DNA of 64,000 nucleotides, from the NCBI GenBank assembly GCA_041640595.1, contig JBEPZY010000005.1, positions 128,001 to 192,000 of the forward strand. Reading direction: 5' to 3'. Of this stretch, positions 3,037 to 52,408 are shown one piece after another. How positions within the stretch are numbered: the first letter of the stretch is position 1; each line of letters starts with the position of its first letter. The translations under genes and the position numbers were made by a program. This DNA comes from Gemmatales bacterium. Its GTDB lineage: Bacteria; Planctomycetota; Planctomycetia; Gemmatales; HRBIN36. The notes beneath the pieces were generated by a model. The model was not told the origin of the DNA, made no database searches, and was given only the letters and a program-made list of their open reading frames with translations.

Positions 3037-3307
3037 ACTGACCCCCGGCCATCTATCACTGATCACCGGCCACCGACCACTGGCCACTGATTCCGACATT
3101 CCGGTAACTGGTCACCAGCCACTGGTCACTGACCACTGATTCGGGCGTTCCGGCAACTGACCACCGGCCACCGACCACTGGCCACTGATTCCGACATTCC
3201 GGTAACTGGTCACCAGCCACTGGTCACTGACCACTGATTCGGGCATCCCGGCAACTGACCACCGGCCACCCATCACTGGCCACTGTTCACTGATCACCGG
3301 CCACTGA
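3037..3307. repeat. Hierarchical short tandem repeat: 7-bp CAC(T/C)G(G/A)(C/T) units grouped in 49-bp blocks, duplicated as 98 bp
   Basis: 3064-3161 and 3162-3259 are near-identical 98-bp copies, each two 49-bp blocks of seven heptamers (caccggc caccgac cactggc cactgat tccgaca ttccggt aactggt). Confidence 0.92.
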
Positions 3308-14792: not shown

Positions 14793-15389
14793 ATGCAGCG
14801 ATGGAACGTAATCATGCTAGTCTTCGGTCTGGCTCTTCTGGCCGGGTGTGGCGGCAAATCGGAAACTTCCAAACCATCTGGTCAGCCTTCCGCGACTGGC
14901 GAGCCGACTGCCCAAAAGACGTTCGTCTTGCGGAGCGAAGCTTTTCGCAACGGTGAGACCATACCCGCCGACTTCCGCCATACAGAGGTCGGTGGCAAAA
15001 ATCAGTCTCCGCCTCTGGAATGGACTGACCCACCGTCAGGCACGCGGGCCTTCGCTCTTGTTTGCATAGACCCCGACGCTCCGGATGGCGAATTCGTGCA
15101 CTGGGTGTTGTACAACTTGCCGGGAGAGCTTCGTAAACTCGAACGCAACCTGGGTCGCACTCCAGCCTTGCCTAACGGTGCTCGTCAGGGGAAGAACGAT
15201 TTTGACGAAATCGGCTACGATGGTCCCGCACCGCCGCCCGGCAAACCGCACCGATACATTTTCCGCCTCTATGCTCTGGATCGCCCACTCGACCTGCCAC
15301 CGCAGGCGACACGCCAGCAACTCGAAAAAGCCATGCAGGGACATATCCTTGCCCAGACCGAACTGGTCGGCATTTACGAGCATAAATAG
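14793..15389 (+). CDS. YbhB/YbcL (PEBP/RKIP-like) lipoprotein
   Basis: Lipobox LLAGC, NQSPPLEW, DPDAP, FVHWVLYN, GYDGPAPP...HRY; SD GGAGGT before ATG 14793. Confidence 0.92.
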   Translation: MQRWNVIMLVFGLALLAGCGGKSETSKPSGQPSATGEPTAQKTFVLRSEAFRNGETIPADFRHTEVGGKNQSPPLEWTDPPSGTRAFALVCIDPDAPDGEFVHWVLYNLPGELRKLERNLGRTPALPNGARQGKNDFDEIGYDGPAPPPGKPHRYIFRLYALDRPLDLPPQATRQQLEKAMQGHILAQTELVGIYEHK

Positions 15390-15836
15390 CGTCCGTCGGC
15401 ATCAGCTGGTCGCCGTGCTCGCCGATCGGCCTGGCTAAGACCCCAAGCCTGCGAGCGTAAATAGCATCCGTCGTCATCGGTGGGCCGGTGCAAATACTGG
15501 ACAATGGCAGCCGTCGAGTCATTCACGTTTACCAGGCGGATCGTATTGCGACTCCGAATTCGGCTGGGTATCAGTTTGGCGGCATCGCCTCTCTGCGTGG
15601 ACTTTGCTCGATTCACATCTGAGAGGTATCCTCGCGCTGACGTCCGCGGTATCGCCTCTCTCGCTTTGCTCGATGCGGTGAGTGTTACGCCGGTTGTCGG
15701 CCTTCCGCGAGAATTGCTTGGTCTCCTTCGGTGGATTTCGCTCGATGCGGTGAGTATGGTGTCGAGCGTCATCGAGATACGCTCGCCCTGGACAAATGAC
15801 CTGGCGACAATCGGTGAGCGAGCAACGCCACTAACA

Positions 15837-15999
15837 GTGAAACTGAAACAGGCGGTTACGTAAACAGGCGCCGATCTCTGTCCAGGGTAGAAACTGGGAT
15901 TGGGTGAAACTTGAACAGGCGGTCAGGCCAACGATGATGGTCAGCCCGACCCGCACCAGCGACATGACAGGTGAAACTTGAACGGACGGCCAAGCCAAC
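15837..15999. repeat. Three 29-nt direct repeats with 38-nt intervening segments (CRISPR-like geometry, degenerate)
   Basis: GTGAAACTGAAACAGGCGGTTACGTAAAC (15837), GTGAAACTTGAACAGGCGGTCAGGCCAAC (15904), GTGAAACTTGAACGGACGGCCAAGCCAAC (15971); period exactly 67. Confidence 0.6.
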
Positions 16000-16333
16000 G
16001 TTCCCGACTATCTCCGTATAATAACGCCGACTCAATCGAGCCAGGAAGCTTTCCTGCTCCAGCCAACACGCTGACATCTAGACTCGCGGTACGTGGCCTG
16101 AAAGAATTGGGAACCACAATTCCTCTTCGGCGTGTTGTGCTTAATGGCAGGGGCCTTGCGGTACGATACCGGAACGACTTGAGGAACCGCAAATTCGGCT
16201 ATCTTACAATCTGGTGGTGCGATCAACCACCAGCTATACTGAATTGACTGACTGGATGGAGACACCAGCCGATCGTCATAAACACTAAAATCACAATTGT
16301 GGCAAGCTTCAGCACTGAATGGACTAACTTTGT

Positions 16334-16406
16334 GGGGCCGTAGCTCAACTGGGAGAGCGCCGGCTTTGCAAGCCGGAGGTTGCCGGTTCGAGCCCGGTCG
16401 GCTCCA
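16334..16406 (+). tRNA. tRNA-Ala(TGC), CCA not encoded
   Basis: GGGGCCG acceptor with G3:U70, D arm TAGCTCAACTGGGAGAGC, anticodon arm CCGGC-TTTGCAA-GCCGG, T loop GGTTCGAGCC. Confidence 0.97.
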
Positions 16407-16480
16407 CTAAGCATCGGCATGACGCGCGGCAATGGGGGCTTGATTCGCAGCGAGTGGAAGGCGGTCGGCTCCACTAAGCA
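16395..16480. repeat. 19-bp direct repeat of the tRNA-Ala 3' end (att-like)
   Basis: CGGTCGGCTCCACTAAGCA at 16395-16413 and 16462-16480. Confidence 0.85.
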
Positions 16481-16906
16481 CTTCTGCCACGCAGACCCTG
16501 GCAACTGGTTCCGCTCAATCCGCTAAATGCTCGCCCCGCTCGGCTGTAGCAAACGCCGTTATCAGGTCGGCATCCGCAATGCACTGCTCGCTTTCGATTT
16601 TGTGTACCACGAAGGCACTACGACGCACTGACTTAGAGCTTAGTGTTTTCCAGGTGTCCTGGTGTCTTCGTGGTCAGCATTTCGGGGATTCAAGCATCGC
16701 AGGCTGTGCCGCTACGCCCTGTCTCTCGCTACTCGTTCCTGTTCCTTCGTTGCTTTCCTGTGCTGGTTATTAGATTGCAAGCGCTGAACCGGAGCGCGTC
16801 TCTCTTGCCAACGCCAAGATGCCGCTGATACGTTCCTGACGACGCGGACAAGGAAACATTGCCTTCTGGCCTTGAATTCGTGAGAGAACCCCAAGGGGAA
16901 ACGGGT

Positions 16907-18769
16907 TTATGCATGCAATTCCTGCTCCAGTGTCTCCAGGGCTTTCACCAGCGGGTCATCGTATTCGATCCGCAGCATGGCGTTGTCCTGCCATTCCTTG
17001 ATTAGTTTCTGGATGTCCGCTTGCACTTTCTCGACAAGGCGGTTTGTCGTGCGGCTGGATGTGATTATGCTGGCGGCAAACATGGCGAGAATGAAAACGG
17101 GAATGGCACTGAGCACCAAACAGTATAGAAACTGGCCCAACCCTGCCGGGAGGAAGTCGTGCAGTTCGGTGGGTTGGCCTGTCAGGGCGGAGTAATCGGC
17201 ACTGAGGTACCGTCGATAGACGGTCAGAATCGGCCCAGCCATGAAGAACGCGAACACTGCCGTAGCCATGCTGGCCCAGACGAAGGGGCCCCATCGGCGC
17301 GTTTCTGCATGCGCCGCCACTACTTTTTGCACCGTTTCGTAGCAACGGTTCTGGAAATCTTCGATACCCACCACGCGCACGCCCAGTTTCTCCGCCGGAC
17401 GATACTCTTCCTGCCGGTACTGGTTCACGATGCGATGAATCGCATGGACTACCGGCTGCAACTGGCTTTCTACCTCGGCCCGGAACCGATCGGCAAAGCT
17501 GATACGCCAGCGCCGCTCACTCTTCCACGTTTCACCGAGGTTACGCAGCATTTGCCAGAACGTCAGCACGGCCGAGGGCTTACTCCCCATAAAGGACAGA
17601 ACAAGCCGATCCCAGGCGTTTTCCGTAAGCATCAACAGGCGAAGAATGGTGCGATAGGGAAAGGCCCACACCGGGGTGCGCTCTAACCACCAGCCTCGCA
17701 AGTGTCGCCGCACCAGCACACGTTGTTCTTCGTCATTGCCCAGCAAGCGGCTCGCTAACCTGTCAGCCAGGTCCGACGTGGTGCTGTTTAGTAGTTCCCA
17801 TTTTTCCTTTACTTGTTGTCGCAGCTCGCTGGTCAGTTCGCCGATTCTTTGGGCCAGCGCCTTGCGGCGAACGCGGATCTCGCTCTCGACGTTACCGTAC
17901 ACCCGCGAACGATCGGCCAGGATCGGCTGGAGCGTTTTCTGCAACCGTTGCCGAACCAGCTCTATCGCTCCATCACCGTATAAGTCGGCGTCGGGGATAA
18001 AGATGGGGTCCATAACCTGACCGTCGGAATTATTATCGCGCCATCTCGCCAGATACTTTTCCACATCCGCGCGCTGTTCGGCGGATGGATTCGCCTGACC
18101 GCGATTGCGAAACCGGATTACAGGAATGCCCCCGCCTGACTGGCGAAACAGTTCTTCCGTCTCTCCATCGCGTAGTTGCTCAAACCGAAGCACTATCAGC
18201 TTGATAGCCCCCGACGTCCGTGCTAAGTCATTGATAATGTTTATAGCCTCTCCTAAAGTCGAAAATCCCGGAGCGTCCCCGACTATATAAGGTGAACCTA
18301 GATCCAGCATTGCAGACTCTGGTACCTGGATAAATCTCTCTGCCCCTTGTTGCATGTTGCCGGGCGGACAAGGCCCGATCCACAGCAATTGCTGGGAACG
18401 ATCGCGTGCATCCGGTCCTGAGGGAATCTGCTTTCGATACGCCTCGTCATTGAGAAAACATCGGGCCAGCCAGCCTTTTCCTTCACCGGTGCGGCCGAGC
18501 AGAACGATGGGCACTGTGCTGGCTGTTCCGCGTTCAATCAGACGCTGACACGAAGAGAGAAACTCCTGCACCAGCTTAGATATTTCTTCCTGCCGAGGAG
18601 TATTACCATAGATGATCTTGATGGTCTCCTGCAGTCGCTGACAGCGTGCTTGCGTTTCCGTTAGCAAAGCATTAGCGGCGTCGTTTTGCTTAGCTCGGCT
18701 GATTGGCGTGCTTATATCTTGATGTTTAGTACCCGTGTCCAGGGCATAGTTCTGCTTAGCTGCGCTCAT
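16907..18769 (-). CDS. Dynamin-like/TRAFAC GTPase with C-terminal transmembrane segments
   Basis: G1-like LLGRTGEGKG, G3 DAPG, helical stalk, two hydrophobic C-terminal segments; ATG 18769 with SD AAGGAG overlaps upstream stop. Confidence 0.7.
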   Translation of the reverse strand: MSAAKQNYALDTGTKHQDISTPISRAKQNDAANALLTETQARCQRLQETIKIIYGNTPRQEEISKLVQEFLSSCQRLIERGTASTVPIVLLGRTGEGKGWLARCFLNDEAYRKQIPSGPDARDRSQQLLWIGPCPPGNMQQGAERFIQVPESAMLDLGSPYIVGDAPGFSTLGEAINIINDLARTSGAIKLIVLRFEQLRDGETEELFRQSGGGIPVIRFRNRGQANPSAEQRADVEKYLARWRDNNSDGQVMDPIFIPDADLYGDGAIELVRQRLQKTLQPILADRSRVYGNVESEIRVRRKALAQRIGELTSELRQQVKEKWELLNSTTSDLADRLASRLLGNDEEQRVLVRRHLRGWWLERTPVWAFPYRTILRLLMLTENAWDRLVLSFMGSKPSAVLTFWQMLRNLGETWKSERRWRISFADRFRAEVESQLQPVVHAIHRIVNQYRQEEYRPAEKLGVRVVGIEDFQNRCYETVQKVVAAHAETRRWGPFVWASMATAVFAFFMAGPILTVYRRYLSADYSALTGQPTELHDFLPAGLGQFLYCLVLSAIPVFILAMFAASIITSSRTTNRLVEKVQADIQKLIKEWQDNAMLRIEYDDPLVKALETLEQELHA

Positions 18770-20924
18770 AGGCCAACTCCTTCCACTCCCCAATTTCTTT
18801 CGTCCAATTCCAGATACCGGTGTTAGGTAAAGGAAGTATTTGGCGCAAGGCTGGTACGGCGACTTTTGGCAGGACGAACTCGCGTTGGTTATTACCTCGG
18901 CCAAACTTTACACACAGCCGCCCACCAGGGCTCAATTCTCTCGGCAAGCCGAACGCATCGCAGAAGAGGTAAAACAAGGCAGCCAGTGCCGGCAGCGTAT
19001 TATGTTTCACCAGACCGCCATAGTACACCCCAAAGGCCGATCCGGTGCCGATGACCGCAACCGTTAGAGCTTTTAAGCCAGCAATGTTGGTAGCGAGCCA
19101 GGCGGTTAGTGAAAATGTGCTCAGGAGCGTCGCGCCGCCATCTACCAGGGCGGCTACTCCCGCGGCTAAGCCTACCGCTGCCCCGACAACGACCACTACG
19201 CTCTTGCCCAATATCTTGAACTTTTCCCAGCCCGGCAAATTGTTCCAGAAATCCTGGGCCATCCGATCTAATTCTTGCGGGTCGGTCTTGAGTTCCACCC
19301 TCTTGAGAAAGGTTAGAAGTACCTCACTAATCAGCGCCTGGAGTTCGTGCTTAGTGCAGGTTTTCGGGATCCAGCGCTGATATTGCAATTCTTCTGCCAA
19401 TTCTTCGGCTGTCTTGAAAGGCAGGGAGGGCTGTTCCGTTTGGGATGGGAACAAATCGGTGCAAATGTTCGACCAAGCTTGCCTGGCTTTGCCGACACCT
19501 GGCAATGATACAAGGCCACTAATCCAGTCTTTTACCGTTGCTGCTGCGCGAAGCGATTTCTGCCCTATCCACTCCCCGGCACGGACCAGCCTGGGAGCAT
19601 TGCGGATCATCGCCTGGTGTAGGTCGGACATGAACTGTTGATTCGCAACCTGTTTCGGTTCGTTTCTTTCGTCCGTGAACAGTTTGCTACAGAACGTCAG
19701 CAGACCTTTATAGGCCTGGCGCGTGTTTTCTTCGCAGTCCGCTCGCCAACGTTCCAGAGAATCCAGCGCCTCCCGAACCACCCGCCGAACCTCTTGTGCG
19801 TGCGATTGGGCTGCTTGCTGCTGCAACTGGCCAGGCTCCAGTCGCCGATAGAGCTCGACCAGCCAGTACTCACGGGGTATGTCCTGCGGCGAATCAAAAT
19901 GCCGGGGTTCCGCGGTATAGAACATCGGAAAACGCTCAGTAGATTTGCCGGAGTCGGTGCTGTTAGTCTGGCGGAGCTTATTGCTTGCACTGTCCTGCCA
20001 CAGACCCCGCGGTGTATAGTCCTCCCAACCATTGACTTCATAATCCATAGCGACGTACACACCGTTCAGCTGAAACTTAGATTTCAAGGCACTAACATCC
20101 GGGTCGTCCTGGAGAATGCTGCGGAGAAGGCTTGGCTGGGTTGGGCGAACTTTATTGACCAGCAGGTACATAGGCACATCCGCCATCCGCTGCCGCAACT
20201 CATCAAGCAGCTCATAAAGCAATCGATCCCGCAACTGGGCACGTTCCCAAACTACGAAAAACGCCGAGCATACCCGTGCCGCTTGCGCCACGAATTCTAA
20301 TCGCTCATTCCGTCGCCTACCTGGCTCGTGTGAAGGCAGCTTCGACCCCGGCTCATCCTTAGTCTGAATATCCATGCAATCCAGAAAAGCGAATTCTGTT
20401 AGCCCTGGATCATAGGCGACTAATGGTACTGGAATTTTCTCAGGACGGTCGCGACCGCTGCTATATTGCTCGAATGCCTGTTTAGTGTCTTCGCTTAACA
20501 TTTCTGGCCGCTGGTTGTGAGCATCATAAAGAATTTTCCGAATAAGCTGTTCCTGGTGCGGGTCTTGACGGCAACGCTCTGGAAACCAGTAAACGAAGCG
20601 ATGAGTACCATACTTAGATTCGTAACCGCGTGGCACGCGCCGGCGACCCGCTTCACTGAGAAACATGGCCACAACACTCGATTTACCCGCGTTGAGTTGG
20701 CCAACTACGCCGATGATCGGAATTTTCGCTATTTGCAGACGTGTCTTGGCAATTGCTACCGCTTTGTCCATCTCGACGAGCAACCCTTTGCAACCCGCCT
20801 GTTGCAAAGCCTGCGACCAACTCAGCGTTTCACGCGACGAATCGAGGATGGGTTGATCACGAAGATGCTCATAGCGACTGATTAGCCTTTCTAAATTAGT
20901 CATTCCCGACTCTGTTTTGCTCAT
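18756..20924 (-). CDS. Dynamin-like/TRAFAC GTPase with C-terminal hydrophobic region
   Basis: G1 GVVGQLNAGKSS, G2 GTH, G3-like DCMD, G4 VNKV, hydrophobic stretch VVVVVGAAVGLAAGVAAL; SD GAGGGG before ATG 20924. Confidence 0.75.
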   Translation of the reverse strand: MSKTESGMTNLERLISRYEHLRDQPILDSSRETLSWSQALQQAGCKGLLVEMDKAVAIAKTRLQIAKIPIIGVVGQLNAGKSSVVAMFLSEAGRRRVPRGYESKYGTHRFVYWFPERCRQDPHQEQLIRKILYDAHNQRPEMLSEDTKQAFEQYSSGRDRPEKIPVPLVAYDPGLTEFAFLDCMDIQTKDEPGSKLPSHEPGRRRNERLEFVAQAARVCSAFFVVWERAQLRDRLLYELLDELRQRMADVPMYLLVNKVRPTQPSLLRSILQDDPDVSALKSKFQLNGVYVAMDYEVNGWEDYTPRGLWQDSASNKLRQTNSTDSGKSTERFPMFYTAEPRHFDSPQDIPREYWLVELYRRLEPGQLQQQAAQSHAQEVRRVVREALDSLERWRADCEENTRQAYKGLLTFCSKLFTDERNEPKQVANQQFMSDLHQAMIRNAPRLVRAGEWIGQKSLRAAATVKDWISGLVSLPGVGKARQAWSNICTDLFPSQTEQPSLPFKTAEELAEELQYQRWIPKTCTKHELQALISEVLLTFLKRVELKTDPQELDRMAQDFWNNLPGWEKFKILGKSVVVVVGAAVGLAAGVAALVDGGATLLSTFSLTAWLATNIAGLKALTVAVIGTGSAFGVYYGGLVKHNTLPALAALFYLFCDAFGLPRELSPGGRLCVKFGRGNNQREFVLPKVAVPALRQILPLPNTGIWNWTKEIGEWKELAYERS

Positions 20925-21275
20925 AGGCAAGTCCCCTCACGTTTGCACGAATTGGCCCCGATTACCCGCGAAATTGTCCAAGTCGCTGGACATAGCCTTT
21001 TCTCCCTGTAAAGGCGACTGTAAATATTGACGACACAGTCGCCGCATGCTTGCATCCAGAGCCGATTATCGCATTCACCAAAAGACACCAGTCGGGTCAT
21101 ACCTCGCCTTCGCCTTTTTGGTATTGCGTAGGTCTTATTAGAAGGTTTTGCTGCTTTTTGGCAACGGATAGTTTTGCATACAAGATAAATTCGACAGTAA
21201 GACTTGGTTGTGTCTATATCAACAAAAGCACAATGCATCTATTGCATCAGGCTGATGATAATTGCAAGCCCTTAA

Positions 21276-21722
21276 TTAGTTGAAATCATTTACTCGGCCA
21301 GCTAAACCACGATTGCAGTATGATGCTATGCGATTGTTGCCGTTATATGGCCGGCATTCGACAAAGTTGCCATTGCCGTTACCATCGCCAGAATGATCAT
21401 CGCCATCATCGCCATCGTCACCACCATCGTCATCGTCGTCACCATGCTCACCCCTCGTAACGAAGATATTTACCATAATCCCAACCTTGCCGAAAAGTAT
21501 GTGGTTGACTATGACAACGAAAACAAGCACAAAAGATAACAGCCAGAAAATATCCGTCGAACTGTAGCCAAACCAGCTTGTAAAAATGTAGAAAAGACCA
21601 AGAATAGCTAATGGTACAGTGAACAGAACTGCTAGACTGCCAAGTTGATTAACACGGTTGTTCTTCGCTGAATGTTTGATGATCCTAACAAGTGCATCAA
21701 CCGGGTTCTCGTGATTGCGCAT
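21276..21722 (-). CDS. Small AT-rich membrane protein with Asp/Gly-rich tail
   Basis: ATG 21722 with SD AAGGAGGT; two or three TM segments then GDDDDDGGDDGDDGDD. Confidence 0.6.
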   Translation of the reverse strand: MRNHENPVDALVRIIKHSAKNNRVNQLGSLAVLFTVPLAILGLFYIFTSWFGYSSTDIFWLLSFVLVFVVIVNHILFGKVGIMVNIFVTRGEHGDDDDDGGDDGDDGDDHSGDGNGNGNFVECRPYNGNNRIASYCNRGLAGRVNDFN

Positions 21723-22200
21723 TGCTTTTACCTCCTTCGACCGTGAAGCTTGTAGCCATTGCAGGTTGTTACCGCCTGTATGTGATTGTACCAGCTCATT
21801 TCGCATTATTTGTCCTATAAACGTTTCCAGTGGGCTTGGCCACATAATGTCTAGCGTGAAAAGACGCGTTTATAGGCCCTTTATCCAAATCTGAAAGCTA
21901 TTCGTATCACAGGGGCACGGCCTTTTTTCCATGCAGATGCGACCCAGTCCGTTTGCCCGTCCTGGGAGCTCTGCAATCCGCTATACACTTATAAATACGG
22001 AGCAGTCCGGCGTCTTGTGACAATTCTTCCGGTTTTTTGGCCTTACGGGGCCAACAACGCTTGGGGAAATTTTTGTTGCCAGGCAAGCGGGCAATCGGTA
22101 AGATAAGCGGCAGAGCGGACTACCACAAACCAGGGGTAGTCACAAAACGGGGTTGACCTGCGTATTACCCTTAGGGAAGCCCAGACCAGGAGGATTCACC

Positions 22201-23109
22201 ATGGGTTATTGCGTCTATCCCGCATTCCGAGGGTTTGGGGAGCTCTTCAGGGAGCACCGCGATTTAGCAGGAGTTATTGAGAAACTCATCGAACAGTTGC
22301 ATGAAGCAGACCCAAAGCAGTGCGGCGAACGGTTGCCCGGTCTTCAACCCATTGGTCGGGGTTGGTACAAAAAGCGGTACGGCAAGTACCGCTTAATCGC
22401 CAACCTTAGACGTGTTAGGGTTGACAACTTCCAGGTCCCTGTCGTGGTGTTCGTGGCCTTTCTGAATCGAGATGATTTTGCCCATGGTAATGGCACGGCC
22501 GACGAATTTGAATCACGTTACGCCCAGCGTTTGGAAGGGCATGGTAACGACATCCATCAGGCGGCCAGGGAATGGTTGCAACAGCAGCAGGACGCAGCCG
22601 CCTGGCAGCCACCGCCAAAACCACCGGACGATCTGCTTCCGGTGCTTGACCCAGTGCGACCCCGTGGTCAGGTAGATGCTTTCTTTTTGCATGCAGATTT
22701 CTGCCGGGCGTACGAACGCCTGACCTTGGACACCGAAAAGGCAAGCGTTTACAGGGCTATGGTAGAAATCGAAAACAGGGAACATTGGGAACCGTATGAC
22801 CAGCTGTTGGACCTCCAAGACGGCAGGGTCGTTGTTTCCTACGTGAGACTGCAGGAACCGCGAGCTGGGTTCAAGCATGTCCTCGTGCTCGGACTGGTTT
22901 CGGAGACCTGGGACCTAGCAACCCGCCAGAACGAGAGCCAAAGAATCTCAGAAATTTGGCAGGCGGTGCAACAACGAATCTTGGCTCTACCCCCGGACAC
23001 TCCTGCAGACCACTACCATGATGCGATATGTCAATTTGCCGAGCGAGCCTTTCCCGCCTACATACTCGCCGACGAGCAACTCTGGCAAAACCTCTGGAGG
23101 AGAACCTGA
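22201..23109 (+). CDS. Hypothetical protein with N-terminal RelE/ParE-like segment; possibly the N-terminal part of the downstream helicase
   Basis: SD AGGAGG before ATG 22201; IEKLIEQL...GWYKKRYGKYRLIA resembles RelE-fold beta strands. Confidence 0.65.
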   Translation: MGYCVYPAFRGFGELFREHRDLAGVIEKLIEQLHEADPKQCGERLPGLQPIGRGWYKKRYGKYRLIANLRRVRVDNFQVPVVVFVAFLNRDDFAHGNGTADEFESRYAQRLEGHGNDIHQAAREWLQQQQDAAAWQPPPKPPDDLLPVLDPVRPRGQVDAFFLHADFCRAYERLTLDTEKASVYRAMVEIENREHWEPYDQLLDLQDGRVVVSYVRLQEPRAGFKHVLVLGLVSETWDLATRQNESQRISEIWQAVQQRILALPPDTPADHYHDAICQFAERAFPAYILADEQLWQNLWRRT

Positions 23110-23111
23110 AC

Positions 23112-26100
23112 ATGGGTGACATGCGCGAGGTCTTTTTGCCGCTCACTACTGAAGAAATTAGCATCCTGCAGTCGCTGCTGGCAGGGGAGAAGCTCCCAGC
23201 TGTAATCGAGGGACGTGCTGGCAGCGGCAAAACTACGCTGCTTATTTATTACACGGCCGAACGCCTTAGCCATCCACTTCCAGCCGGTGCGCGGGTTCTG
23301 TATCTAACACAGAACAAAAGCTTGCTGGAAAAGGCTGAACCACTTATTGAGCAAATTGTGGATCTGCTTATTCAAGATAGAGGAGGGAACGCCGATAGAA
23401 TCAAGGGCGAATATCGGACCTATCACGACTTCGCTCTCAGTCAATTGCCTGACGAGCGTAAAGAACGATTCCGGCGTCGCAGCCGGCAACGTGAAGGTGG
23501 ATGGATCGATTTCGATCGCTTCGTCAGCTTGTTGCGGGGGCAGGATAACCAGCAACAAGATAGGTGTCCATCTCCTTTTGCCCGAAATCGAGAATGTAAT
23601 CCGGAAGCTGTTTGGTTTATTCTGCGGAGCTACATTAAGGGGTATAAAATCACCGACCGAGGCGAAGACCGCTGGATTAGCTTTGATGAATACAGAGATA
23701 GCGAAGAAATTCCGGCAAAGGATCGCCAGGTTTCGGCCGATCTTTATGAGAAGGTTTGGAAACACATTTGGCCGTGGTATAAGAAGCTGACCGTTCCGTG
23801 CGAAGAGAACGGCTACGAACCGCGTTATTGGGACGATCTCGACCTGGCCTGGGAAGTGCTAGAACATCGCAGCAGCGACGCCCCCACTTACGCCATTCTG
23901 ATTTGCGACGAAGTGCAGGATTTGACGCGGGTGGAGCTAGCGGCTCTGCTCGGTAGCCTCCAGTGGGCGCGTTATGACCTGCGTGATCTGGCGCCAAACC
24001 GGGGCTGGGGCCAGCGTGAACTGCGCTTACCGATCATTCTGGCGGGGGACGCACACCAGACAATCAACCCGGCTGTATTCCGCTGGGAGCGCGTGAGTGC
24101 GGATTTGGCAAAAGCGTTGGTCGCACACCTACCGACGCTCCCCGAACCAAGGGTTGAACGGTTGCAGCTTCAGTACAATTATCGTAATGCCCGCAGCATT
24201 GGCCAGCTTTGTAATGCCTTACAACACCTCCGTCAACGAACCTTGGGACAACAAAGCCGGCTGCAATTGCTCTGGAAGTTGCCCGACACGCAGCCTAATC
24301 AGCGAGTCCGCCAGCTGATCATTGCGCCAAGGCAGCTGGAAGAATTGTTGAAAACAGGCGTGCTTATCGTCGTGCCCGAAGATGATGATCCTAATCTGGA
24401 ACACACGCGACCGTTCTGGGAAGCACTGGGTTTTCCACGTCCACCCGAAAATGTCAACAATGAGCCGGGAGAGTTGAAAAATAAACCACGCCGACCGGCA
24501 GACATCAAAGGCCTCGAACTGGACTGTGTCGCGGTGGTTGGGTTTGGCGTCCTCTGGCATCTGTGGTTACAACAACCGCAGTACCGGCAACTGGCCGAGT
24601 TCTGGAACTGGCAGAATGCTGCAGACAATGGAGAAATCTCTGAAGACCTGCGTTTTCTTGTGGAATATTTCCTGAATCGGCTTTACGTGGCTGTCAGTCG
24701 GGCACGCGAGGAACTGTGGATTATTGAGACCGAGCAAGGCTGGAATGCCTTTTGGTCCAGGCTTGAAGACTGGGTTGATGAGCAGTGGGGACAACAAGTA
24801 GCAAACGCAGGGACGGGCGCAGCTGGGGAAGCGGGAATCGGACCTGCGGATGACGAGCAGCTGCGGCAGTGGGCAATAACTCGATCGGCTGACCCTCCGA
24901 CTGACGTGGTGGATCGCCCATACGCTTTCGTATATAGCAAGGGGGATTTGCGCCAACTGAGCACAGTTTTCGAGGGGAATCAGGAGAATTTGCGGCGACT
25001 TGCGGAGGACTTTGAGAGGGCTGCGCACGATGGGCGGAATCCGAATCTCGCGGAGTCGGCGGCATATTATTACTCGCTCGCCGGCGATACAGTCAACCAG
25101 CACAAGATGCTGGCATACTGCTTGTATTACGATGGAGAAGTTCTGCAAGCGGCCCGCAGGATGATCGGCATCGTGGATGATCGTTGTCGTCAGTTGGGTT
25201 CCGATTGGTACTGGGAGGCGGCGGGAGAGGATAATCAAACAGAGCTAGCCTGGCGTGAAATAAGCGAGGATGAGCGCATTGCTCCTTCCTGGCGCCGTGA
25301 AATTGCCGAGTGCATGGTCGCATTGATGCTGGAGCGGACTGTTGACGCGACCTTCGTCGCTCTGCTGGCTGAGCTTCTCCAGCGTCGCACTCCACAACGC
25401 AATGAACTGAAGCCAGAACACTGGACCACGTGGGAAAAGGTCTATATCCAGTTGGTACAGTCAGCAAACCATCTGTCCCCGGACTCTTTCGCGGTTCAAC
25501 AACAGGCTTATGATGTGGCACTAAGATGGACACCGACGAGCCGGCGGACTTTGCACGAGTACTTCTATCAACTCGGCAGGCTCGCATTCACGCTCGCACA
25601 GCGCTGTGATGCCATCGGTATGGGAAGGTCGTATTACAGCGAAGCTGCCGAGCATTGGCAAAAGGCTGGGCGAACGCGCGAGCGCGATTACCATATTGCC
25701 AAGGCCGAAAGTACCGAATATCCCCAGTGCTTGCAATACTGGGAAACTGCTGGGGATTACGAGCGCATTTTGAAAGAGTATCGCGACCATTCGGGCGTTT
25801 CTCTTGCTCGCGACAACGCCCAGCGGGTGGCTCGAGCGCTACGGGAAATCTCGAAGCCGAAAATCGAGCAGGCTATGCGGGGAGCTATCCAGGCTGGCCA
25901 GAACCTTCAGGAGTCATTGAGCTACGTAATCCGCGAGGCCCATCGCGAACTCCGCGGGCTGTATGATGATAAAAACCTTGACTTGCCCAGGTTTCAAAGA
26001 GATTGGACTCACTGGATACTAGATTTGCTTATTAGCTCTGAGAGCGAATTGGCCCGCTTGGTTTCCGAGCTAGCGCGTGAAAGCACTTTTGGCCAGATCA

Positions 26101-27299
26101 TCCGCGGCTTGGTAGTGGAAGCGTTTGCACTGGATTCTGAGCCAGAGGCACTGCGCGATGGTTTTCGTGAAAGCTGGCAGACCCGAGTGTCTCCGAATAC
26201 CAATTGGCCGAGGTTCCGAAACTACTTGCAGCAAATCATTCACGCTGTCCATGAAGGGACCAACCAACGTGCCAGCACCCGGGATGGTAACGCGCGACGA
26301 CAGGTCGCGCGATTATGCAGGCTTGTTTTAGGCGTTTTGTGGCGGTTCGACGAAAGATTGGAGGGAAGGGAACGTGACGATTTTCCGCCGGGCCTGCAAA
26401 GTCGTTTGGTGGAATACGTTTACGTTACCTTGCCCCAAACTGAGGTTCAAAGCACCGTCAATTATCTGGAGCAAATTAGTCCGGAGATGCGAACCATTGT
26501 GCAGGAAGCAATCGCTTGCATTGCCGATTTGCCCCAAGATTGGATCCCGGGTGCCGATGGCCAAAGGGATCAGCAACCTTGGAGGTCTCTAATGGAATGG
26601 ACAAATGCGCTCGCCTACGATCTGTACGAAAATCTGCGGCTTACCTTGGAGAGGGCACGAAGCGAAGCGGATGTTGCGCCTTACGAGTGGTGGATGTTGG
26701 TGGGCAGGTTCATCGAGCAGGCACCGTTTCGCCGACGGGCCCGAGACTTTTACCGCGATTTACTCAACTTATCGGAGCGGTTTGGTTGGTCTCCGGAACG
26801 CCAAGGTGAAATTCGCCAGAGGCTACAAGCATACGACGAGAGGTATAATCGCTGGAAGGAAGAGCGGCGCATCCGTGAGGAAGACGAGCGAGAAGAGGCG
26901 CGAGGACAACGCGAAGGAATAACGGTCACCGAGGGAATAACGGTCATCGATGTGAAACCTGATGGTAAGACAAAGGGTCATGGTTTTCTTGAAGTGAAAA
27001 GCATGGACAACAGGGCAGAAGCGCTTATCAAGTTTATGCCCGACGAGTATCAGGTGCGTTTTCGTCCGCCAATACAAGCAGGCGGCCAGCCGTTTATGCG
27101 TGCTGACCCAGAGCAGGTTCAGGTCGTTGGGCCTGAGGTGATTGCCGGAAACTTGCGATGGCGACTGCGTGCCAATATCGGCGATGGTGAACGATCAGCT
27201 GAGCTTGAATGGGTAGAAAGCGGGCGGCTTCTTTACGTCCGCAGTAGCGGAGTCGAGTTTCGCGTCTCCTTCGCCGCTGCTGAGACTCCTGCGGGCTAG
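23112..27299 (+). CDS. Large UvrD/Rep-like superfamily 1 helicase with TPR-like helical C-terminal region
   Basis: Walker A GRAGSGKTT, Walker B ICDEVQD, motif III LAGDAHQTI, IV YNYRN, V IKGLE, VI LYVAVSRAR; ATG 23112 two nt after upstream stop (frame open from 23028). Confidence 0.88.
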   Translation: MGDMREVFLPLTTEEISILQSLLAGEKLPAVIEGRAGSGKTTLLIYYTAERLSHPLPAGARVLYLTQNKSLLEKAEPLIEQIVDLLIQDRGGNADRIKGEYRTYHDFALSQLPDERKERFRRRSRQREGGWIDFDRFVSLLRGQDNQQQDRCPSPFARNRECNPEAVWFILRSYIKGYKITDRGEDRWISFDEYRDSEEIPAKDRQVSADLYEKVWKHIWPWYKKLTVPCEENGYEPRYWDDLDLAWEVLEHRSSDAPTYAILICDEVQDLTRVELAALLGSLQWARYDLRDLAPNRGWGQRELRLPIILAGDAHQTINPAVFRWERVSADLAKALVAHLPTLPEPRVERLQLQYNYRNARSIGQLCNALQHLRQRTLGQQSRLQLLWKLPDTQPNQRVRQLIIAPRQLEELLKTGVLIVVPEDDDPNLEHTRPFWEALGFPRPPENVNNEPGELKNKPRRPADIKGLELDCVAVVGFGVLWHLWLQQPQYRQLAEFWNWQNAADNGEISEDLRFLVEYFLNRLYVAVSRAREELWIIETEQGWNAFWSRLEDWVDEQWGQQVANAGTGAAGEAGIGPADDEQLRQWAITRSADPPTDVVDRPYAFVYSKGDLRQLSTVFEGNQENLRRLAEDFERAAHDGRNPNLAESAAYYYSLAGDTVNQHKMLAYCLYYDGEVLQAARRMIGIVDDRCRQLGSDWYWEAAGEDNQTELAWREISEDERIAPSWRREIAECMVALMLERTVDATFVALLAELLQRRTPQRNELKPEHWTTWEKVYIQLVQSANHLSPDSFAVQQQAYDVALRWTPTSRRTLHEYFYQLGRLAFTLAQRCDAIGMGRSYYSEAAEHWQKAGRTRERDYHIAKAESTEYPQCLQYWETAGDYERILKEYRDHSGVSLARDNAQRVARALREISKPKIEQAMRGAIQAGQNLQESLSYVIREAHRELRGLYDDKNLDLPRFQRDWTHWILDLLISSESELARLVSELARESTFGQIIRGLVVEAFALDSEPEALRDGFRESWQTRVSPNTNWPRFRNYLQQIIHAVHEGTNQRASTRDGNARRQVARLCRLVLGVLWRFDERLEGRERDDFPPGLQSRLVEYVYVTLPQTEVQSTVNYLEQISPEMRTIVQEAIACIADLPQDWIPGADGQRDQQPWRSLMEWTNALAYDLYENLRLTLERARSEADVAPYEWWMLVGRFIEQAPFRRRARDFYRDLLNLSERFGWSPERQGEIRQRLQAYDERYNRWKEERRIREEDEREEARGQREGITVTEGITVIDVKPDGKTKGHGFLEVKSMDNRAEALIKFMPDEYQVRFRPPIQAGGQPFMRADPEQVQVVGPEVIAGNLRWRLRANIGDGERSAELEWVESGRLLYVRSSGVEFRVSFAAAETPAG

Positions 27300-27309
27300 G
27301 CCGACTCAG

Positions 27310-27563
27310 TATCGCGGAGCCAGTAAAAAGAAACCGAAACCGGTGCTTAAACGAGAATATTGCCAAGTTTGCATCATTGGGCATCGCGGAGCTTGGCAGA
27401 GAGGAAACCGAAACCAGGGCTTGAACGAGAGCATTGCGAGGTTCACATCATTAGGCATCGCGGAGCTAGCAGAGAGGAAATCGAAACCAGGACTTGAACG
27501 AGAGTATTGTGAGGTTCACATCGTTGGGTATGACGGAGCTAGCAGAAAGGAGAGCGAAATCAG
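27310..27563. repeat. Tandem repeat array A, ~73-bp unit, ~3.5 copies
   Basis: ATCGCGGAGC anchor at 27311, 27383, 27457, 27530 (variant); unit contains AGAGAGGAAACCGAAACCAGGGCTTGAACGAGAG. Confidence 0.9.
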
Positions 27564-27783
27564 GTCGCTGTATCAGGCGGGCTAACAGCCATAGGCAACG
27601 CACTGTTTGATGCAAAGTGGCTGTTTGGCCGAGGTGGGCTGACGAAGTGAGGCATTGCATAAACTCCCCAATAAAAACAGACAAGTGCTTGAAATATCTG
27701 GTGGGAAGTGCGCTGATAACGGGAGGCGTTTGGCAGCTGGGGTAGCTCGTGGGGGGGCTTGCTTTACTGCTGCATGACGAAAG

Positions 27784-28340
27784 CAACGATCGCCGAGGAT
27801 GACCATTATCCGCCACTTCCGCCAATAGAGAGGGGGAACCCACGCGAGGTCTGCGAACAAGAGACCGCCGAGGGCGGCCATTATCCGCCACTCTCGCCGT
27901 TAGAGAGGGGGGAACCCACGCGGGGTTTGCGAACAAGAGGCTGGCGAGGGCGGCCATTATCCGCCACTCTCGCCGTTAGAGAGAGGGGACTCAGGCGGGG
28001 TTTACGAACAAGAGATCGCCGAGGGCGACCATTATCCGCCACTGCCGCCAGTGGAGACGGGAACTCACGCGGGGTTTACGAACAAGAGATCGCCGAGGGC
28101 GACTATTATCCGCCACTTGCACCAGCGGAAAGGGGGGCCCACGCGGGGTCTGCGAACAAGAGGCTGCCGAGGATGACCATTATCCGCCATCCGCGGCAGT
28201 GGAGAGTGGAAAACCACGGAGGGTTCCCGAGGAAAAAGCTGGCGAGGGGGACTATTATCCGCGACTCGCGCCACTGGGAAGAGGGAACCCACGCAGCGTT
28301 CCCCAGGGAAAGGCTGGCGAGGGTGAGCATGTCCGGCACT
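27784..28340. repeat. Tandem repeat array B, 74-76-bp unit, ~8 copies
   Basis: (C/T)ATTATCCGC anchor at 27804, 27879, 27955, 28030, 28104, 28178, 28253 and degenerate 28328. Confidence 0.93.
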
Positions 28341-28786
28341 CCCTCAAGTGGGTCTTCCGCGGCGTGGCTTCCTGAAGGTTTCCACAGATCGGCTTGAATG
28401 CGGCGACGGGGTGATTCCTTACAGTGAGATAGACGAGGCGATCTTGTTTCGGACGCGGCAGTGGTTCATCCCGTGGTACGTGCTGTACGTCAGGTCGCGC
28501 GGACGCCACTATTAATTCGGCCTGAACTCCGGAAAGTTCTGGGCAGGAGAACTACCTTTCCCCGTGCGGTGGGAGACGGCAAAACTGGGCTATTCGTGGT
28601 TTCGTATCGCCCTTCGAGTAGCAGCGGTTGCTGCCTTGCTGTACCTCTTGTGGAGTCGGTGCAGTTAGAACAAAATCCCGAACCAGACGCTACAGCCGAA
28701 GGCGAGGCGTGGTGCCGCGGTGGGGAGCGCGGGGGTGAAATCTTGGTGCGGAAGACGGTGGAGGGGCGGTGGGGGAGGGGGAAGGT

Positions 28787-29536
28787 TCATCGGCTAGGTT
28801 CGTCGGCGAGGCGGACCATGCCGAAACCCTGGGCGTTGCGTTCACCGAAACCGGCATCGTAGCCGACCTGGATCAGTTCGGTCGAACCGCTAACGCGAAA
28901 CTTCATCATCCAGCCACGCACGTGGGTACCGTTGACCGTAAATAACTTCGATTGAGGTGGGCTGAGCCATTCGAACTGAAGTTCGCCGTCGAGGGCAGTG
29001 CCACGGAGAGCAACTGACTTGCGTTTCAAGTTCTCGACCAGGATGCGGCTGAAATCCGGCTGGTGCGGAGCGAGAAACTCTTTACGAAACTTGCCAGAAT
29101 CGTCGCGCTGACCCGTTGAGACCACCAGGGGAGACAGGGTTACCAGCGTCATCGTCGGTTGAAACGCAGGTGGCACAACCACGCCGATTTGTCCCACCTG
29201 CAACAAACATTTGCCCAGGCGTACTTCCGGACGAGTGAAGAAACCCAGGGCGATAGCTTCGATAACCGGTTCCAGCGGCGAGGCAATCCACCAGCGCAGT
29301 CGCCCACGCACACGCATACCGTGCTTCATTTTCCGATACTTGTCGGGATACAGCAGCGAAAAGGTCGCCAACTTGTAGTGTTTGCTGGCAGTGCCGAATC
29401 CCTGTTCGTGAACCTGCTGGGCCAGTTTCGGTCGGCCGAGAGCCATCGTCTGATAAAACAGGCCTCGCAAATGATCGAGATAGTCCCACGGCAGCTCTAC
29501 TTCGTCGTGAGTTAAAAATTCGACGCTGATGCGCAT
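28787..29536 (-). CDS. cas6: CRISPR-associated endoribonuclease Cas6 (orphan in this window)
   Basis: VHEQGF...YKLATFS, TLSPLVV, LVENLKRK, C-terminal G-rich loop GYDAGFGERNAQGFGMV. Confidence 0.93.
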   Translation of the reverse strand: MRISVEFLTHDEVELPWDYLDHLRGLFYQTMALGRPKLAQQVHEQGFGTASKHYKLATFSLLYPDKYRKMKHGMRVRGRLRWWIASPLEPVIEAIALGFFTRPEVRLGKCLLQVGQIGVVVPPAFQPTMTLVTLSPLVVSTGQRDDSGKFRKEFLAPHQPDFSRILVENLKRKSVALRGTALDGELQFEWLSPPQSKLFTVNGTHVRGWMMKFRVSGSTELIQVGYDAGFGERNAQGFGMVRLADEPSR

Positions 29537-29824
29537 TGGGCGGCTTCCTGATACCAGCAGGCTTCGTGGCTGGCGGAATCCATGTTCGTGCTGCGCGCAA
29601 AAACCGCGACAGCAGTCAGGCTGTCAGCATATCATAATGCTAATCTCGCCAGCGTCTGGTATCGCGCGAAGCGAGTGACCCTGCGATCGGCGTGACGTTT
29701 TCCGTATCGCCCGGCAGTGCGACAAGCGCTGGGGTGGTGCGAAACGGTAATATCGGCCAGCTTCAGCTTCCCGCACGGTCGCCGACGGGCAGAGAACAAA
29801 TGGCGTCGCTGAGGTGGGTAAATC

Positions 29825-29910
29825 CCTTACAATAAGCAACTGCCTTCGCGGGGCAGATGAAGAGTCTGAGCCGCTGGAACGCTCACCAGTGCCTTACAAT
29901 AAGCAACTGC
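29825..29910. repeat. 19-bp direct repeat in the divergent cas6/DUF1080 intergenic region
   Basis: CCTTACAATAAGCAACTGC at 29825 and 29892 (period 67); each copy contains a TACAAT -10-like hexamer. Confidence 0.85.
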
Positions 29911-29970
29911 GTTCACGCCGTTCCTCTGCGACCGCGTCAGGAACGGTAAGCAGAACTTCCTGAATGGAGA

Positions 29971-51847: not shown

Positions 51848-52408
51848 AGCGACACACTCTGGCGGAATTCTAGCCGGCGACCGAACCTCCGAAATAGCGA
51901 CACACTTTAGTGCAATTCTAAGCCGGGCCGACCCGGCATTCACGGGGTGCACAGCCCCCTCCTGATACACGCCAGAGTTCGCTTCGAAATGCCCATTTTG
52001 CAATGGCGACACGCACGTTCGCAAGAGCGGCGGGCGTCAGCCCGCCGTGGTTCGTGGTACGACCGCTGTATCGTGAGAAACGAACATTGTCCAGTGGCTA
52101 GCGAACGTACAACGAAGAGCGGCGGGCGTGAGCCCGCCGTGGTTCGGATTCGCACTTGCAACTACTTTGAGGGGGATGAATACGATGACGGGTGGCGGGT
52201 GTGTCAGCCCGCCGTGGTTCGAATTCACACTTGCAACGGCGACCGGCTTTTGCGGACTGATTAACGTCCCGACCGCACGTTCGGCTCCCCAAACCACGGC
52301 TGGCTTACGCCAGCCGCTCTTGGTTGGACGCGCGAATGCCGACGTGGAAATGCGTTTTCCACCTGCGAGCGCGCTACTTTCCGCAGTGCTGGCTTACGCC
52401 AACCGCTC
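51848..52408. repeat. Cluster of REP-like palindromes
   Basis: AAGAGCGGCGGGCGT(C/G)AGCCCGCCGTGGTTCG at 52023 and 52115, variant at 52194, inverted variants at 52292 and 52389; also a 48-bp-period repeat AGCGACACACT...AATTCTA at 51848/51896. Confidence 0.85.

Follow-up and report, generated by a model that had tools for sequence, protein, structure and literature searches.

ArmD of ARMADA type II is the closest studied relative of the split RelE/helicase described here, and is needed for ARMADA defence without having a known mechanism. In the accessible parts of its descriptions (PMC12458937; 10.1101/2025.09.22.677730) ArmD is a 704-aa protein encoded by one gene, having a RelE-like domain at its N-terminus, a linker, and a GajB/UvrD-like helicase, and is found beside ArmA, ArmB, and ArmC. 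The two-gene LeoABC-related dynamin defence system consists, as far as the available text of its report goes, of dynamin-like GTPases that carry P-loops and hydrophobic segments and are encoded by consecutive genes, and 60% of such systems co-localise with defence systems (10.1101/2022.05.11.491447). In B. subtilis the dynamin-like protein DynA delays phage lysis, according to an excerpt of PMC8844932. Neo-CRISPR loci (Nivala, Shipman and Church 2018), as portrayed in extracts of PMC7054753, PMC6698737, PMC7145637, and 10.1101/148544, arise by off-target Cas1-Cas2 integration and carry, outside the array, an insert of spacer length flanked by a target duplication of repeat length.

The block studied here lies in a 64,000-nt stretch (the window) of contig JBEPZY010000005.1 from a hot-spring bacterium. 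The initial annotation read it as one candidate defence system of a dynamin-like pair, a helicase, repeat arrays, and cas6, while allowing that the parts may be independent neighbours. This fallback is backed by co-occurrence: among 55 loci with a GTPase A relative, the helicase adjoins it in one and cas6 in none. The block holds four unrelated neighbours, namely a dynamin-like pair, a split RelE/helicase, a displaced cas6, and scars of misplaced spacers (Table 1). It is thus likely a mosaic of independent elements assembled in a rearranged genome rather than one new anti-virus system. Its genes are accessory and not core, as the helicase is found in 5/40 relatives (and 4/400 genomes of the phylum) and GTPase A in 3/40. 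Both flanks are rearranged relative to congeners, three of which have other genes following tRNA-Ala, and the adjacency of the parts is kept in other hot-spring strains.

Table 1. Features of the block and its margins, in window coordinates.
Feature	Position	Strand	Details
Duplication, 75-nt spacing, 37-nt class	15377..15488		29/37 identical; probable off-target spacer scar
Three copies of a 31-nt unit, 67-nt spacing, different inserts	15836..16000		23/31 and 27/31 identical; probably two successive misplaced spacers
tRNA-Ala(TGC), single copy, intact	16334..16407	+	tRNA call
19-nt copy of tRNA 3' end, 67-nt spacing	16395..16480	+	23/30 identical over 30-nt unit
GTPase B, 620 aa, P-loop GTPase, partner of GTPase A	16907..18769	-	C-terminal hydrophobic segments
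In-frame 66-nt-period duplication, start of GTPase B	18677..18773	-	24/31 identical; probable old scar
GTPase A, 722 aa, dynamin/mitofusin-like fold	18756..20924	-	one strong hydrophobic segment (569-598)
Small low-GC membrane ORF, 148 aa	21276..21722	-	two hydrophobic segments, Asp/Gly-rich tail
RelE-fold protein, 302 aa	22201..23109	+	domain 1-125 RelE/HigB-like; domain 156-300 weakly RelE-like
UvrD-like SF1 helicase, 1395 aa	23112..27299	+	~750-aa helical-repeat-like C-terminal region
Polymorphic helicase site 1	23256..23293	+	38-nt perfect duplication around 40-nt foreign insert in L029 and run X7; empty in window
Polymorphic helicase site 2	23541..23575	+	75-nt in-frame insertion with target duplication in L028 and run X2
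Tandem array 1	27311..27564		3.5 copies of 73-74 nt, whole unit conserved, non-coding
Tandem array 2	27791..28351		~7.5 copies of 74-76 nt, whole unit conserved
Stand-alone cas6 (Cas6b, type I-B)	28787..29536	-	Cas6b E 1e-58
Two copies of a ~30-nt unit, 67-nt spacing, upstream of cas6	29821..29917		26/31 identical; probable spacer scar

The novelty of the locus lies in its split, hypervariable ArmD-like effector, for which an anti-phage role is proposed and whose family could be listed in the supplementary tables of the ARMADA preprint. A RelE-like ORF and an SF1 helicase of ~1400 aa had been annotated as separate genes; both are present on the plus strand, but they are two halves of one ancestral gene. 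In relatives they form a single protein of ~1600 residues, to which the RelE ORF aligns at residues 1-~300. Such RelE-helicase fusions are reportedly listed in a 2003 Genome Biology paper. Outside the species 61/92 helicase relatives have an N-terminal RelE-profile match, 28 of these 61 being training sequences. The helicase start codon lies 2 nt past the RelE stop and is preceded by a purine-rich stretch resembling a ribosome-binding site. All strains seen of this species carry the split form, and among the members listed of the stand-alone RelE cluster 11/15 are full-length 302-aa alleles. An assembly error was rejected as the cause of the frameshift: L028, L029, and run X2 (of which L028 and X2 could be a single strain) carry the junction without a break, and the 302-aa form is represented by a 23-member cluster.

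The predicted model of the 302-aa protein (pLDDT 90.7) indicates a RelE fold. Its structural matches are HigB2 (Z 7.7, rmsd 3.3 over 100 residues) and RelE (Z 7.3), with the second domain at Z 5.8; these scores are middling (Z under 8). RelE is also the best Foldseek match (E 4e-3), and of the 21 highest-ranking structural rows 20 hold RelE/ParE-family toxins, proteins with a RelE domain, or, ranked below these, weaker folds that are unrelated. K57, K58, R59, R64, and R90 are conserved at 82-96% in the family, and position 95, a Tyr conserved at 96%, is His95 in the window allele. With residue roles as in E. coli RelE, a basic catalytic surface and a C-terminal Arg...Tyr/His pair are expected in the RelE/ParE superfamily, and these residues may supply them. 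No small antitoxin gene lies next to the RelE ORF, either upstream or downstream. The helicase is classed as UvrD-like SF1 from its Walker A, Walker B, and motifs III-VI, with G34-K40, D266-D270, A311-P320, N356-R358, K466-E469, and L524-R530 invariant in 50 sequences. Its C-terminal region matches repeat proteins at E 8e-6.

Profile alignment of the helicase with ArmD (HHalign: 96.9%, E 1.5e-10) and a similar motif just before Walker A mark the RelE/helicase, as judged from sequence, as distantly related to ARMADA-II ArmD, longer than it, and stand-alone. The domain order of the fused relatives is that of ArmD as given in its available description. In contrast to that description, the family here reaches 1600 aa through a helical C-terminal region and has two RelE-like domains, no ArmA/B/C lies beside the helicase, and the homologue in the window is split into two genes. 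Of the ArmD trait of a RelE domain fused to a GajB/UvrD-like helicase, the helicase homology and a RelE fold are seen here, fused in relatives but split in the window, and the RelE parts of the two did not align in sequence. No BrxHII-like helicase, PglX-like methylase, or YprA/DUF1998 helicase is found in the block, and a search for a DUF1998 (PF09369) gene in the 95%-complete genome found none. A clear defence cluster is present in just one of six close helicase contexts inspected; there, in G017, the relative lies behind DrmD-, DrmA-, and DrmB-like (DISARM-like) genes in an ARMADA-like order.

On balance, a defence role for the ArmD-like effector is somewhat more likely than not. In a tentative mechanism, which is given somewhat less than an even chance, the variable C-terminal region would sense a phage product, the ATPase would then switch, and the RelE domain would cut ribosome-bound mRNA and stall the infected cell. 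With the two parts encoded separately, the helicase would restrain the RelE protein in trans. The two-gene unit is a candidate for testing, as the natural split would allow toxin and regulator to be tested apart; fused relatives are rare and scattered.

The two coupled GTPase genes of the initial annotation do overlap on the minus strand and form a two-gene unit conserved in planctomycetes and verrucomicrobia, in tandem at 45/46 loci with room for the partner. A single-protein scan of genome contigs returned no relatives of GTPase A, which were found by alignment search instead. The predicted model of GTPase A (pLDDT 84) matches Fzo1 in Foldseek (E 2e-6) as well as dynamin, BDLP, and SynDLP; only GTPase A was folded and structure-searched, and GTPase B was judged from its P-loop and hydrophobic segments. 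A profile comparison of the two was not significant. The pair has the GTPase fold, helical stalk, hydrophobic paddle, and tandem genes of bacterial dynamin-like pairs. It would probably bind and repair or remodel membranes, possibly delaying phage lysis like DynA, a role that is about evenly balanced. The resemblance to the LeoABC-related system lies in consecutive genes, P-loops, and hydrophobic segments, but the profile matches fall far below membership level (LeoA E 3.5e-3; LeoBC E 6e-5, from GTPase B). Defence neighbours are rare, with PADLOC matches (1e-25) for 9/149 nearest neighbours and in 6/51 loci. A plausible defence neighbour is present in 3/51 loci, so the pair lacks LeoA/LeoBC-type enrichment in defence islands; the 60% given in the accessible part of the LeoABC report was obtained by a different method.

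The cas6 gene annotated downstream is present, and orthology indicates that it is the gene missing from the type I-B/III-B operon on contig C8. That operon has no cas6, and its cas8b-cas7-cas5-cas3-cas4-cas1-cas2 genes are 48-72% identical to an orthologous cassette in G370, where a 40%-identical cas6 sits between cas2 and the array. The Cas6b profile match and this orthology to the cas6 of an intact I-B cassette place it with type I-B Cas6. It is highly probable that the displaced cas6 acts in trans to mature crRNAs with 30-nt repeats from the I-B/III-B locus. The system resembles type I-B (Tneap-type) CRISPR-Cas carrying a III-B module in its Cas6b match and the C8 gene set, but differs in that cas6 lies on another contig, away from operon and array. 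This cas6 was not found in 40 relatives searched; C8 cas8b was likewise not found in five relatives, which is uninformative.

Further duplications spaced 66-75 nt apart were overlooked at first (15377, 15668, 15836/15903/15970, 18677, and 29825) and fit the geometry of more than 200 probable scars across the genome. Among 304 non-REP two-copy loci, 99 have spacings of 65-69 and 118 of 72-77, against a background of ~1 per spacing, and the duplicated lengths have modes at 30-31 and 37-38. A separate REP-like family forming a peak at 87-96 nt (139/175 loci) was removed before counting. The genome's two CRISPR arrays have periods of 65-69 and 72-76 with repeats of 30 and 37 nt. This agreement with the scars (periods 66-67 and 73-75, lengths 30 and 37) indicates off-target Cas1-Cas2 integration, and the genome's two Cas1-Cas2 integrases very probably made them. 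The spacing distributions of scars and arrays peak together, with differences at a finer scale (chi-square p 0.02 and 0.05). Target likeness to the repeat end is weak, its score being reached by 0/300 local nulls in the 37-nt class and 11/300 in the 30-nt class. G002, which has one cas1, is nearly free of scars (1 in 333 kb). No insert source was traced; one insert searched against viral contigs gave 0 matches, and the genome matches listed are dominated by the REP family.

Two such insertions segregate within the helicase gene, with the empty site seen in a sister strain; they cleanly document a protein-coding gene before and after a misplaced spacer went in. The GTPase B N-terminus is 21 residues longer than in the congener L031, against 22 expected from its 66-nt duplication. 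The ~30-nt unit upstream of cas6 is not a CRISPR repeat copy and has no other copy in the genome. Relative to neo-CRISPR loci as outlined in the extracts available, the target duplications are of the same kind, but here they are natural, number over 200, fall into two size classes from two integrases, and in some cases segregate inside a putative defence gene.

Both tandem arrays named in the initial annotation are present, but their relatedness could not be demonstrated, as 30/500 shuffles scored as well. They are not CRISPR arrays, since conservation spans the whole unit (minority letters: 36 across the first 37 columns and 45 across the remaining 39). Decayed 25-residue coding repeats were dismissed, as the three codon positions vary about equally often (7, 8, 7), and a structured RNA or known family found no support (no stable fold, z 0.2 for array 1; no Rfam match). 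Array 1 is unique in the genome, array 2 has rearranged joints in X3, X5, and X7, and neither has a match in five relatives. The arrays may well be secondary amplifications of scar-sized units.

Between strains GTPase A differs by 6.3%, RelE by 4.5%, and the helicase by 10.7%, whereas seven neighbours stay at 0.5-1.6%. Conserved columns are avoided by these differences in GTPase A (5/115 vs. 123/604, p 4e-6) and in the helicase (0/109 vs. 73/791, p 5e-5) but not in RelE (3/33 vs. 33/269, p 0.42). The contrast between hypervariable GTPase A and GTPase B (1.2%) points to which dynamin subunit meets phage. Targeted A-to-N hypermutation was rejected as the source of the clustered differences, as the substitution spectrum has no such bias.

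A single co-functional system, in which the arrays would serve as guide RNAs processed by Cas6 alongside the GTPase pair and RelE/helicase, is very unlikely. The parts are physically adjacent, including in other hot-spring strains, and every one is accessory, but the co-occurrence data already contradict it, the cognate cas operon lies elsewhere, and the arrays have neither repeat-spacer structure nor unusual fold. A narrower possibility is a genus-level divergent cassette in which hypervariable GTPase A senses or contains membrane damage by phage and the RelE/helicase kills. The same divergent layout in one congener (L031, same contig as G003:C290), together with the helicase in all three relatives that have GTPase A, indicates that some linkage exists, and exactly GTPase A, RelE, and the helicase are hypervariable. 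However, these relatives are kin rather than independent, the single adjoining locus stands against it, in G017 and G037 the two modules are on separate contigs, and in G001 and G002 (87% and 93% complete) the helicase is present but nothing matches GTPase A. The cassette is therefore doubtful. More improbable still is its fullest extension, an undescribed stand-alone abortive-infection effector split into a toxin and a sensor-helicase brake and working with the dynamin pair. If true, GTPase A and the helicase tail would be two sensors in an arms race with phages, and an error-prone Cas1-Cas2 adding in-frame inserts of 25-26 residues to the helicase would mean that adaptive machinery diversifies an innate defence gene.

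Decay of the split RelE/helicase is compatible with the favoured mosaic and is itself unlikely, if less so than the cassette; the frameshift would have lifted selection, with substitutions, stops, and misplaced spacers then accumulating. The helicase is broken in 5/12 strain contigs allowing a call, including a nonsense change in L028, and RelE has 21 non-synonymous vs. 2 synonymous differences, indistinguishable from neutral (p 0.08); the breaks and the RelE variation across conserved columns both fit decay, as does His95. Against this, helicase polymorphisms spare all conserved columns, longer indels between strains are mostly multiples of three, full-length RelE alleles predominate among those listed, the helicase retains its own start codon, and sequencing errors may account for some breaks. 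At the other end of the block, tRNA-Ala and, 67 nt downstream, an exact 19-nt duplicate of its 3' end (16395/16462) are as annotated, and could mark the remnant of an integrative element with the copy as att core. The 19 exact bases span the 3' end of the tRNA and are flanked by unevenly decayed sequence, as in att cores, the GC content of the block is slightly low, and congeners lack the block at tRNA-Ala. Yet the 67-nt distance is the modal scar class, the flanks are rearranged anyway, and a genome search allowing up to 3 mismatches found no further copy, so that none brackets the block at its far end. The annotated absence of an integrase also holds, as none of four genomic tyrosine-recombinase matches is on this contig. 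A similar copy follows tRNA-Thr at 65 nt, such copies occurring in 2/51 tRNA calls. The copy is better read as a spacer scar than as an att site, and an integrative remnant is improbable. Of the proposed defence island, the accessory genes, the ArmD-like helicase, and the DISARM-like context of one relative stand, while no att pair or integrase backs the anchoring at a tRNA.

Promoter and terminator scans of the block gave chance-level results only, and Atlas searches gave leads only, all under 0.9. Contigs of RNA run X5 cover the block, although contigs by nature cannot show transcription. The small membrane gene of the initial annotation is on the minus strand as described but lies within the AT-rich divergent gap; it has two matches only, with no relative outside the species group, and is near GTPase A in 0/55 loci. 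The gap itself is confirmed, with a GC content of 0.469 at 20931-22200 vs. 0.575-0.579 in its flanks, and contigs of runs X5 and X7 skip 20959-21933, the region of the membrane ORF.

The new element here is a rare, split and hypervariable RelE-helicase resembling ArmD, the RelE-like/helicase protein of ARMADA type II, whose function we infer; literature and database look-ups returned no description of a split ArmD-like RelE-helicase. By alignment, the 302-aa RelE-like ORF corresponds to residues 1 to ~300 of relatives of 1580–1680 aa, in which the remainder is the helicase. A RelE-domain profile matches the N-terminus of 61 of 92 relatives outside the species, 28 of these 61 being training sequences. 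The predicted structure of the ORF (pLDDT 90.7) matches HigB2 (Z 7.7) and RelE (Z 7.3) over residues 1–120, with a weaker RelE match over residues 156–240 (Z 5.8). These RelE scores are middling, yet consistent across the family. The helicase motifs are unchanged across 50 sequences, and the tail gives weak matches to designed repeat proteins. The helicase family profile matches ArmD with a probability of 96.9% (E 1.5e-10). ARMADA type II has the operon partners ArmA, ArmB and ArmC beside ArmD, whereas none of these is found in the block, and no DUF1998 gene was found in the genome. In a preprint (10.1101/2025.09.22.677730), the armD mutant is reported to be less affected than the other three mutants.

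The split is fixed in the strains seen: the junction (RelE stop, 2 nt, helicase start) is alike in the window and the strain contigs L028 and L029, no indel occurs there among the matches listed for four runs, and the 302-aa form makes up a cluster of 23 members.

Features of the window, of other contigs of the genome (G000) and of related loci
Feature	Location	Length (aa)	Remark
GTPase A	window, start 20924	722	start agrees with database proteins
GTPase B	window, start 18769	620	start agrees with database proteins
RelE-like ORF	window, start 22201	302	start agrees with database proteins
Helicase	window, start 23112	1395	start agrees with database proteins
Segment holding membrane ORF	window 20959-21933		missing from contigs of two runs
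49/98-nt tandem array	window 3037-3285		
Triple duplication	window 15836-16000		
Divergent helicase patch	window 23678-23828		
REP-like palindrome family	window 52023-52400		genome-wide
tRNA-Thr 3' copy	G000:C2:70485-70646		spacing 65-66 nt
Stand-alone cas6	G000:C7:73991-76412 (L210:9992-12413)		
Reverse transcriptase and cas1	G000:C1:356904-359617 (L207:16905-19615)		
TerY, PP2C and kinase triad	G000:C1:352547-355977 (L207:12551-15978)		
Doubled GTPase pair	L047:9941-20679		
G017 defence cluster	G017:C1:462-26700 (L203, L240)		
Viral helicase relative	L242:184-4533	1450	

The 4.45 Mb assembly, in which the window is G000:C5:128001-192000, is 95% complete. The closest named homologues come from Gemmatales and other planctomycetes, and the sequencing runs containing the window DNA are chiefly hot-spring and mat metagenomes. 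Every gene named in the initial annotation is present. The small membrane gene is among them, positioned within the AT-rich gap rather than outside it, and a search for relatives of this ORF beyond the species group found none.

Compared with the near-identical strain L028, the window differs by 97 substitutions across 21000–28000, all of them within 22080–25884. No difference falls in GTPase A, GTPase B or the membrane ORF, and one falls in cas6. In RelE, 21 changes are non-synonymous and two synonymous (p 0.08 against neutrality), and the L028 helicase has a nonsense change at codon 183. Mean pairwise protein difference, a rough measure from full-length, distinct sequences among the 15 or fewer members listed per cluster, reaches 10.7% in the helicase (n=7; two tail alleles that diverge push this value up), 6.3% in GTPase A (n=12) and 4.5% in RelE (n=11). 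The membrane ORF differs by 1.6%, GTPase B by 1.2%, cas6 by 1.0% and four housekeeping neighbours by 0.5–1.4%. In GTPase A and in the helicase, the variable positions avoid conserved columns; in RelE they do not. Of the 12 contigs allowing a call (matched by their length), five have a fragmented helicase, and sequencing errors may lie behind some of these. The pattern fits costly, diversifying defence genes; decay of the RelE half is a live rival. In L029 and sequencing run X7, one helicase patch is swapped for a sequence that diverges far more, pointing to recombination with a distant allele.

The GTPase pair, helicase, arrays and cas6 had been proposed as a single system; co-occurrence counts across 55 loci and 40 relatives speak against this, and the block is a mosaic. 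The GTPase A profile yielded 55 loci, spread over planctomycetes, verrucomicrobia and a small number of other groups; many are short, so adjacency counts cover visible neighbours only. Where a locus leaves room of 600 nt or more (46 loci), GTPase B follows GTPase A in 45. The helicase adjoins GTPase A in one of the 55, a congener contig (L031, the same as G003:C290), and cas6 and the membrane ORF in none. Of 40 relatives, five have the helicase, three have GTPase A and none has the window cas6. The chief argument for linkage is that all three relatives with GTPase A also have the helicase, in two of them on other contigs.

The GTPase A model (pLDDT 84) resembles Fzo1/mitofusin, dynamin, SynDLP, BDLP and a bacterial dynamin pair (best E 2e-6), and both GTPases have hydrophobic segments in their C-terminal part. 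PADLOC gave only weak LeoA and LeoBC matches for the pair. A scan of 149 of the 153 nearest neighbours in 51 loci (all but the helicase, a single GTPase B and two long proteins) returned PADLOC matches for nine proteins in six loci, and in our judgement the setting is plausibly one of defence in three of the 51. The neighbours that recur are housekeeping genes. For a published two-gene dynamin system (10.1101/2022.05.11.491447), co-localisation with defence genes is reported at 60%. The pair here is likely to work like a bacterial dynamin pair and is only a candidate member of the published system. In locus L047 the pair occurs twice in tandem with identical scores, either a duplication or an assembly artefact.

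The block had also been described as a tRNA-anchored island, an unlikely account: no second att copy was found, and the contig has no tyrosine recombinase. In three congeners a different conserved gene run follows tRNA-Ala, and synteny comparison places different neighbours on both flanks of the block. The tRNA-Ala copy at +67 fits the size classes of two-copy duplications that we read as scars of off-target Cas1-Cas2 spacer integration. The 3' part of a tRNA-Thr on another contig is likewise copied, and tRNA T-loops may be favoured off-target integration sites.

Two CRISPR repeats, each with cas1 alongside, are present: a 37-nt repeat with 246 exact copies in the genome (periods mostly 72–76) and a 30-nt repeat with 316 copies on contig C8 (periods 65–69). 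Outside arrays, the spacing of two-copy repeats peaks at these periods. After removal of REP-like elements, 99 of 304 loci are spaced at 65–69 and 118 at 72–77, with ~1 per spacing elsewhere, and duplicated lengths peak at 30–31 and 37–38. Scars fall in long ORFs in 45 of 226 cases, against 76% of random windows. Sampled relatives gave 0 (G006) and 2 (G017) in 200 kb each, 1 in 333 kb (G002) and 2 in 336 kb (G004); other loci gave 1 in 780 kb, and congener cas1 contigs 2 in 23 kb. Two helicase gene sites empty in the window are filled in other strains. In L029 and run X7 one site holds 40 new bases flanked by a perfect 38-nt duplication; in L028 and run X2 the other carries an insertion of 75 nt. 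The scar classes also fit the triple, the GTPase B start (+66) and, upstream of cas6, a pair at +67. Off-target Cas1-Cas2 integration is reported for engineered E. coli (Nivala 2018, as cited in other papers). REP-like palindromes account for 139 of the 175 loci at 87–96-nt spacing.

The two tandem arrays had been taken as related, but their mutual similarity is non-significant (30 of 500 shuffles as good). Each occurs once in the genome and is conserved along the whole unit. They share the 73–75 period of scars, though not the repeat-spacer layout, and are probably amplified scar units. The window also holds a 49/98-nt tandem array whose short motif is found again elsewhere in the genome.

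The window cas6 matches Cas6b (E 1e-58). The C8 locus, beside the 30-nt-repeat array, contains Cmr1-4, Cmr6, cas8b, cas7, cas5, cas3, cas4, cas1 and cas2, and no cas6. Besides the window gene, two Pfam Cas6 searches of the genome recovered only a fragment on C23 and another stand-alone cas6 on C7. The C7 gene adjoins a CARF-RelE (Cami1-like) gene and lies apart from the type III-D operons on C1 and C3; no cas6 was found in either of these two operons. Genome G370 has an orthologous cassette (48–72% identity to C8) whose cas6 is flanked by cas2 and by a similar array of 30-nt repeats; the best match of this cas6 in our genome is the window gene (40%). Together with its conservation between strains, this indicates that the window cas6 is the displaced processing enzyme of the C8 locus. 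A partial type III-A locus lies on small contigs C20 and C23 (L211, L212), along with the cas6 fragment and repeats of a third type; these contigs may be DNA of another organism in the bin. On C1, a separate reverse-transcriptase gene precedes cas1 of the 37-nt-repeat array, so the 73–75-nt scars may include RNA-derived inserts; the TerY, PP2C and kinase triad directly adjoins this array.

Six close helicase contexts were inspected. A G017 defence cluster contains a DUF499 ATPase, an adenine methylase, DrmD-like, 1107-aa unknown, DrmA-like and DrmB-like proteins followed by the fused RelE-helicase, and is a DISARM/ARMADA-like hybrid. The G003 context has the GTPases, those of G319 and G113 have kinase genes close by, and those of G001 and G290 have metabolic genes. 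Two distant plasmid matches lie near cas1/VapC and DUF262 genes. A further helicase relative is located on a viral contig, with adjoining ORFs that, judged by eye, resemble terminase subunits.
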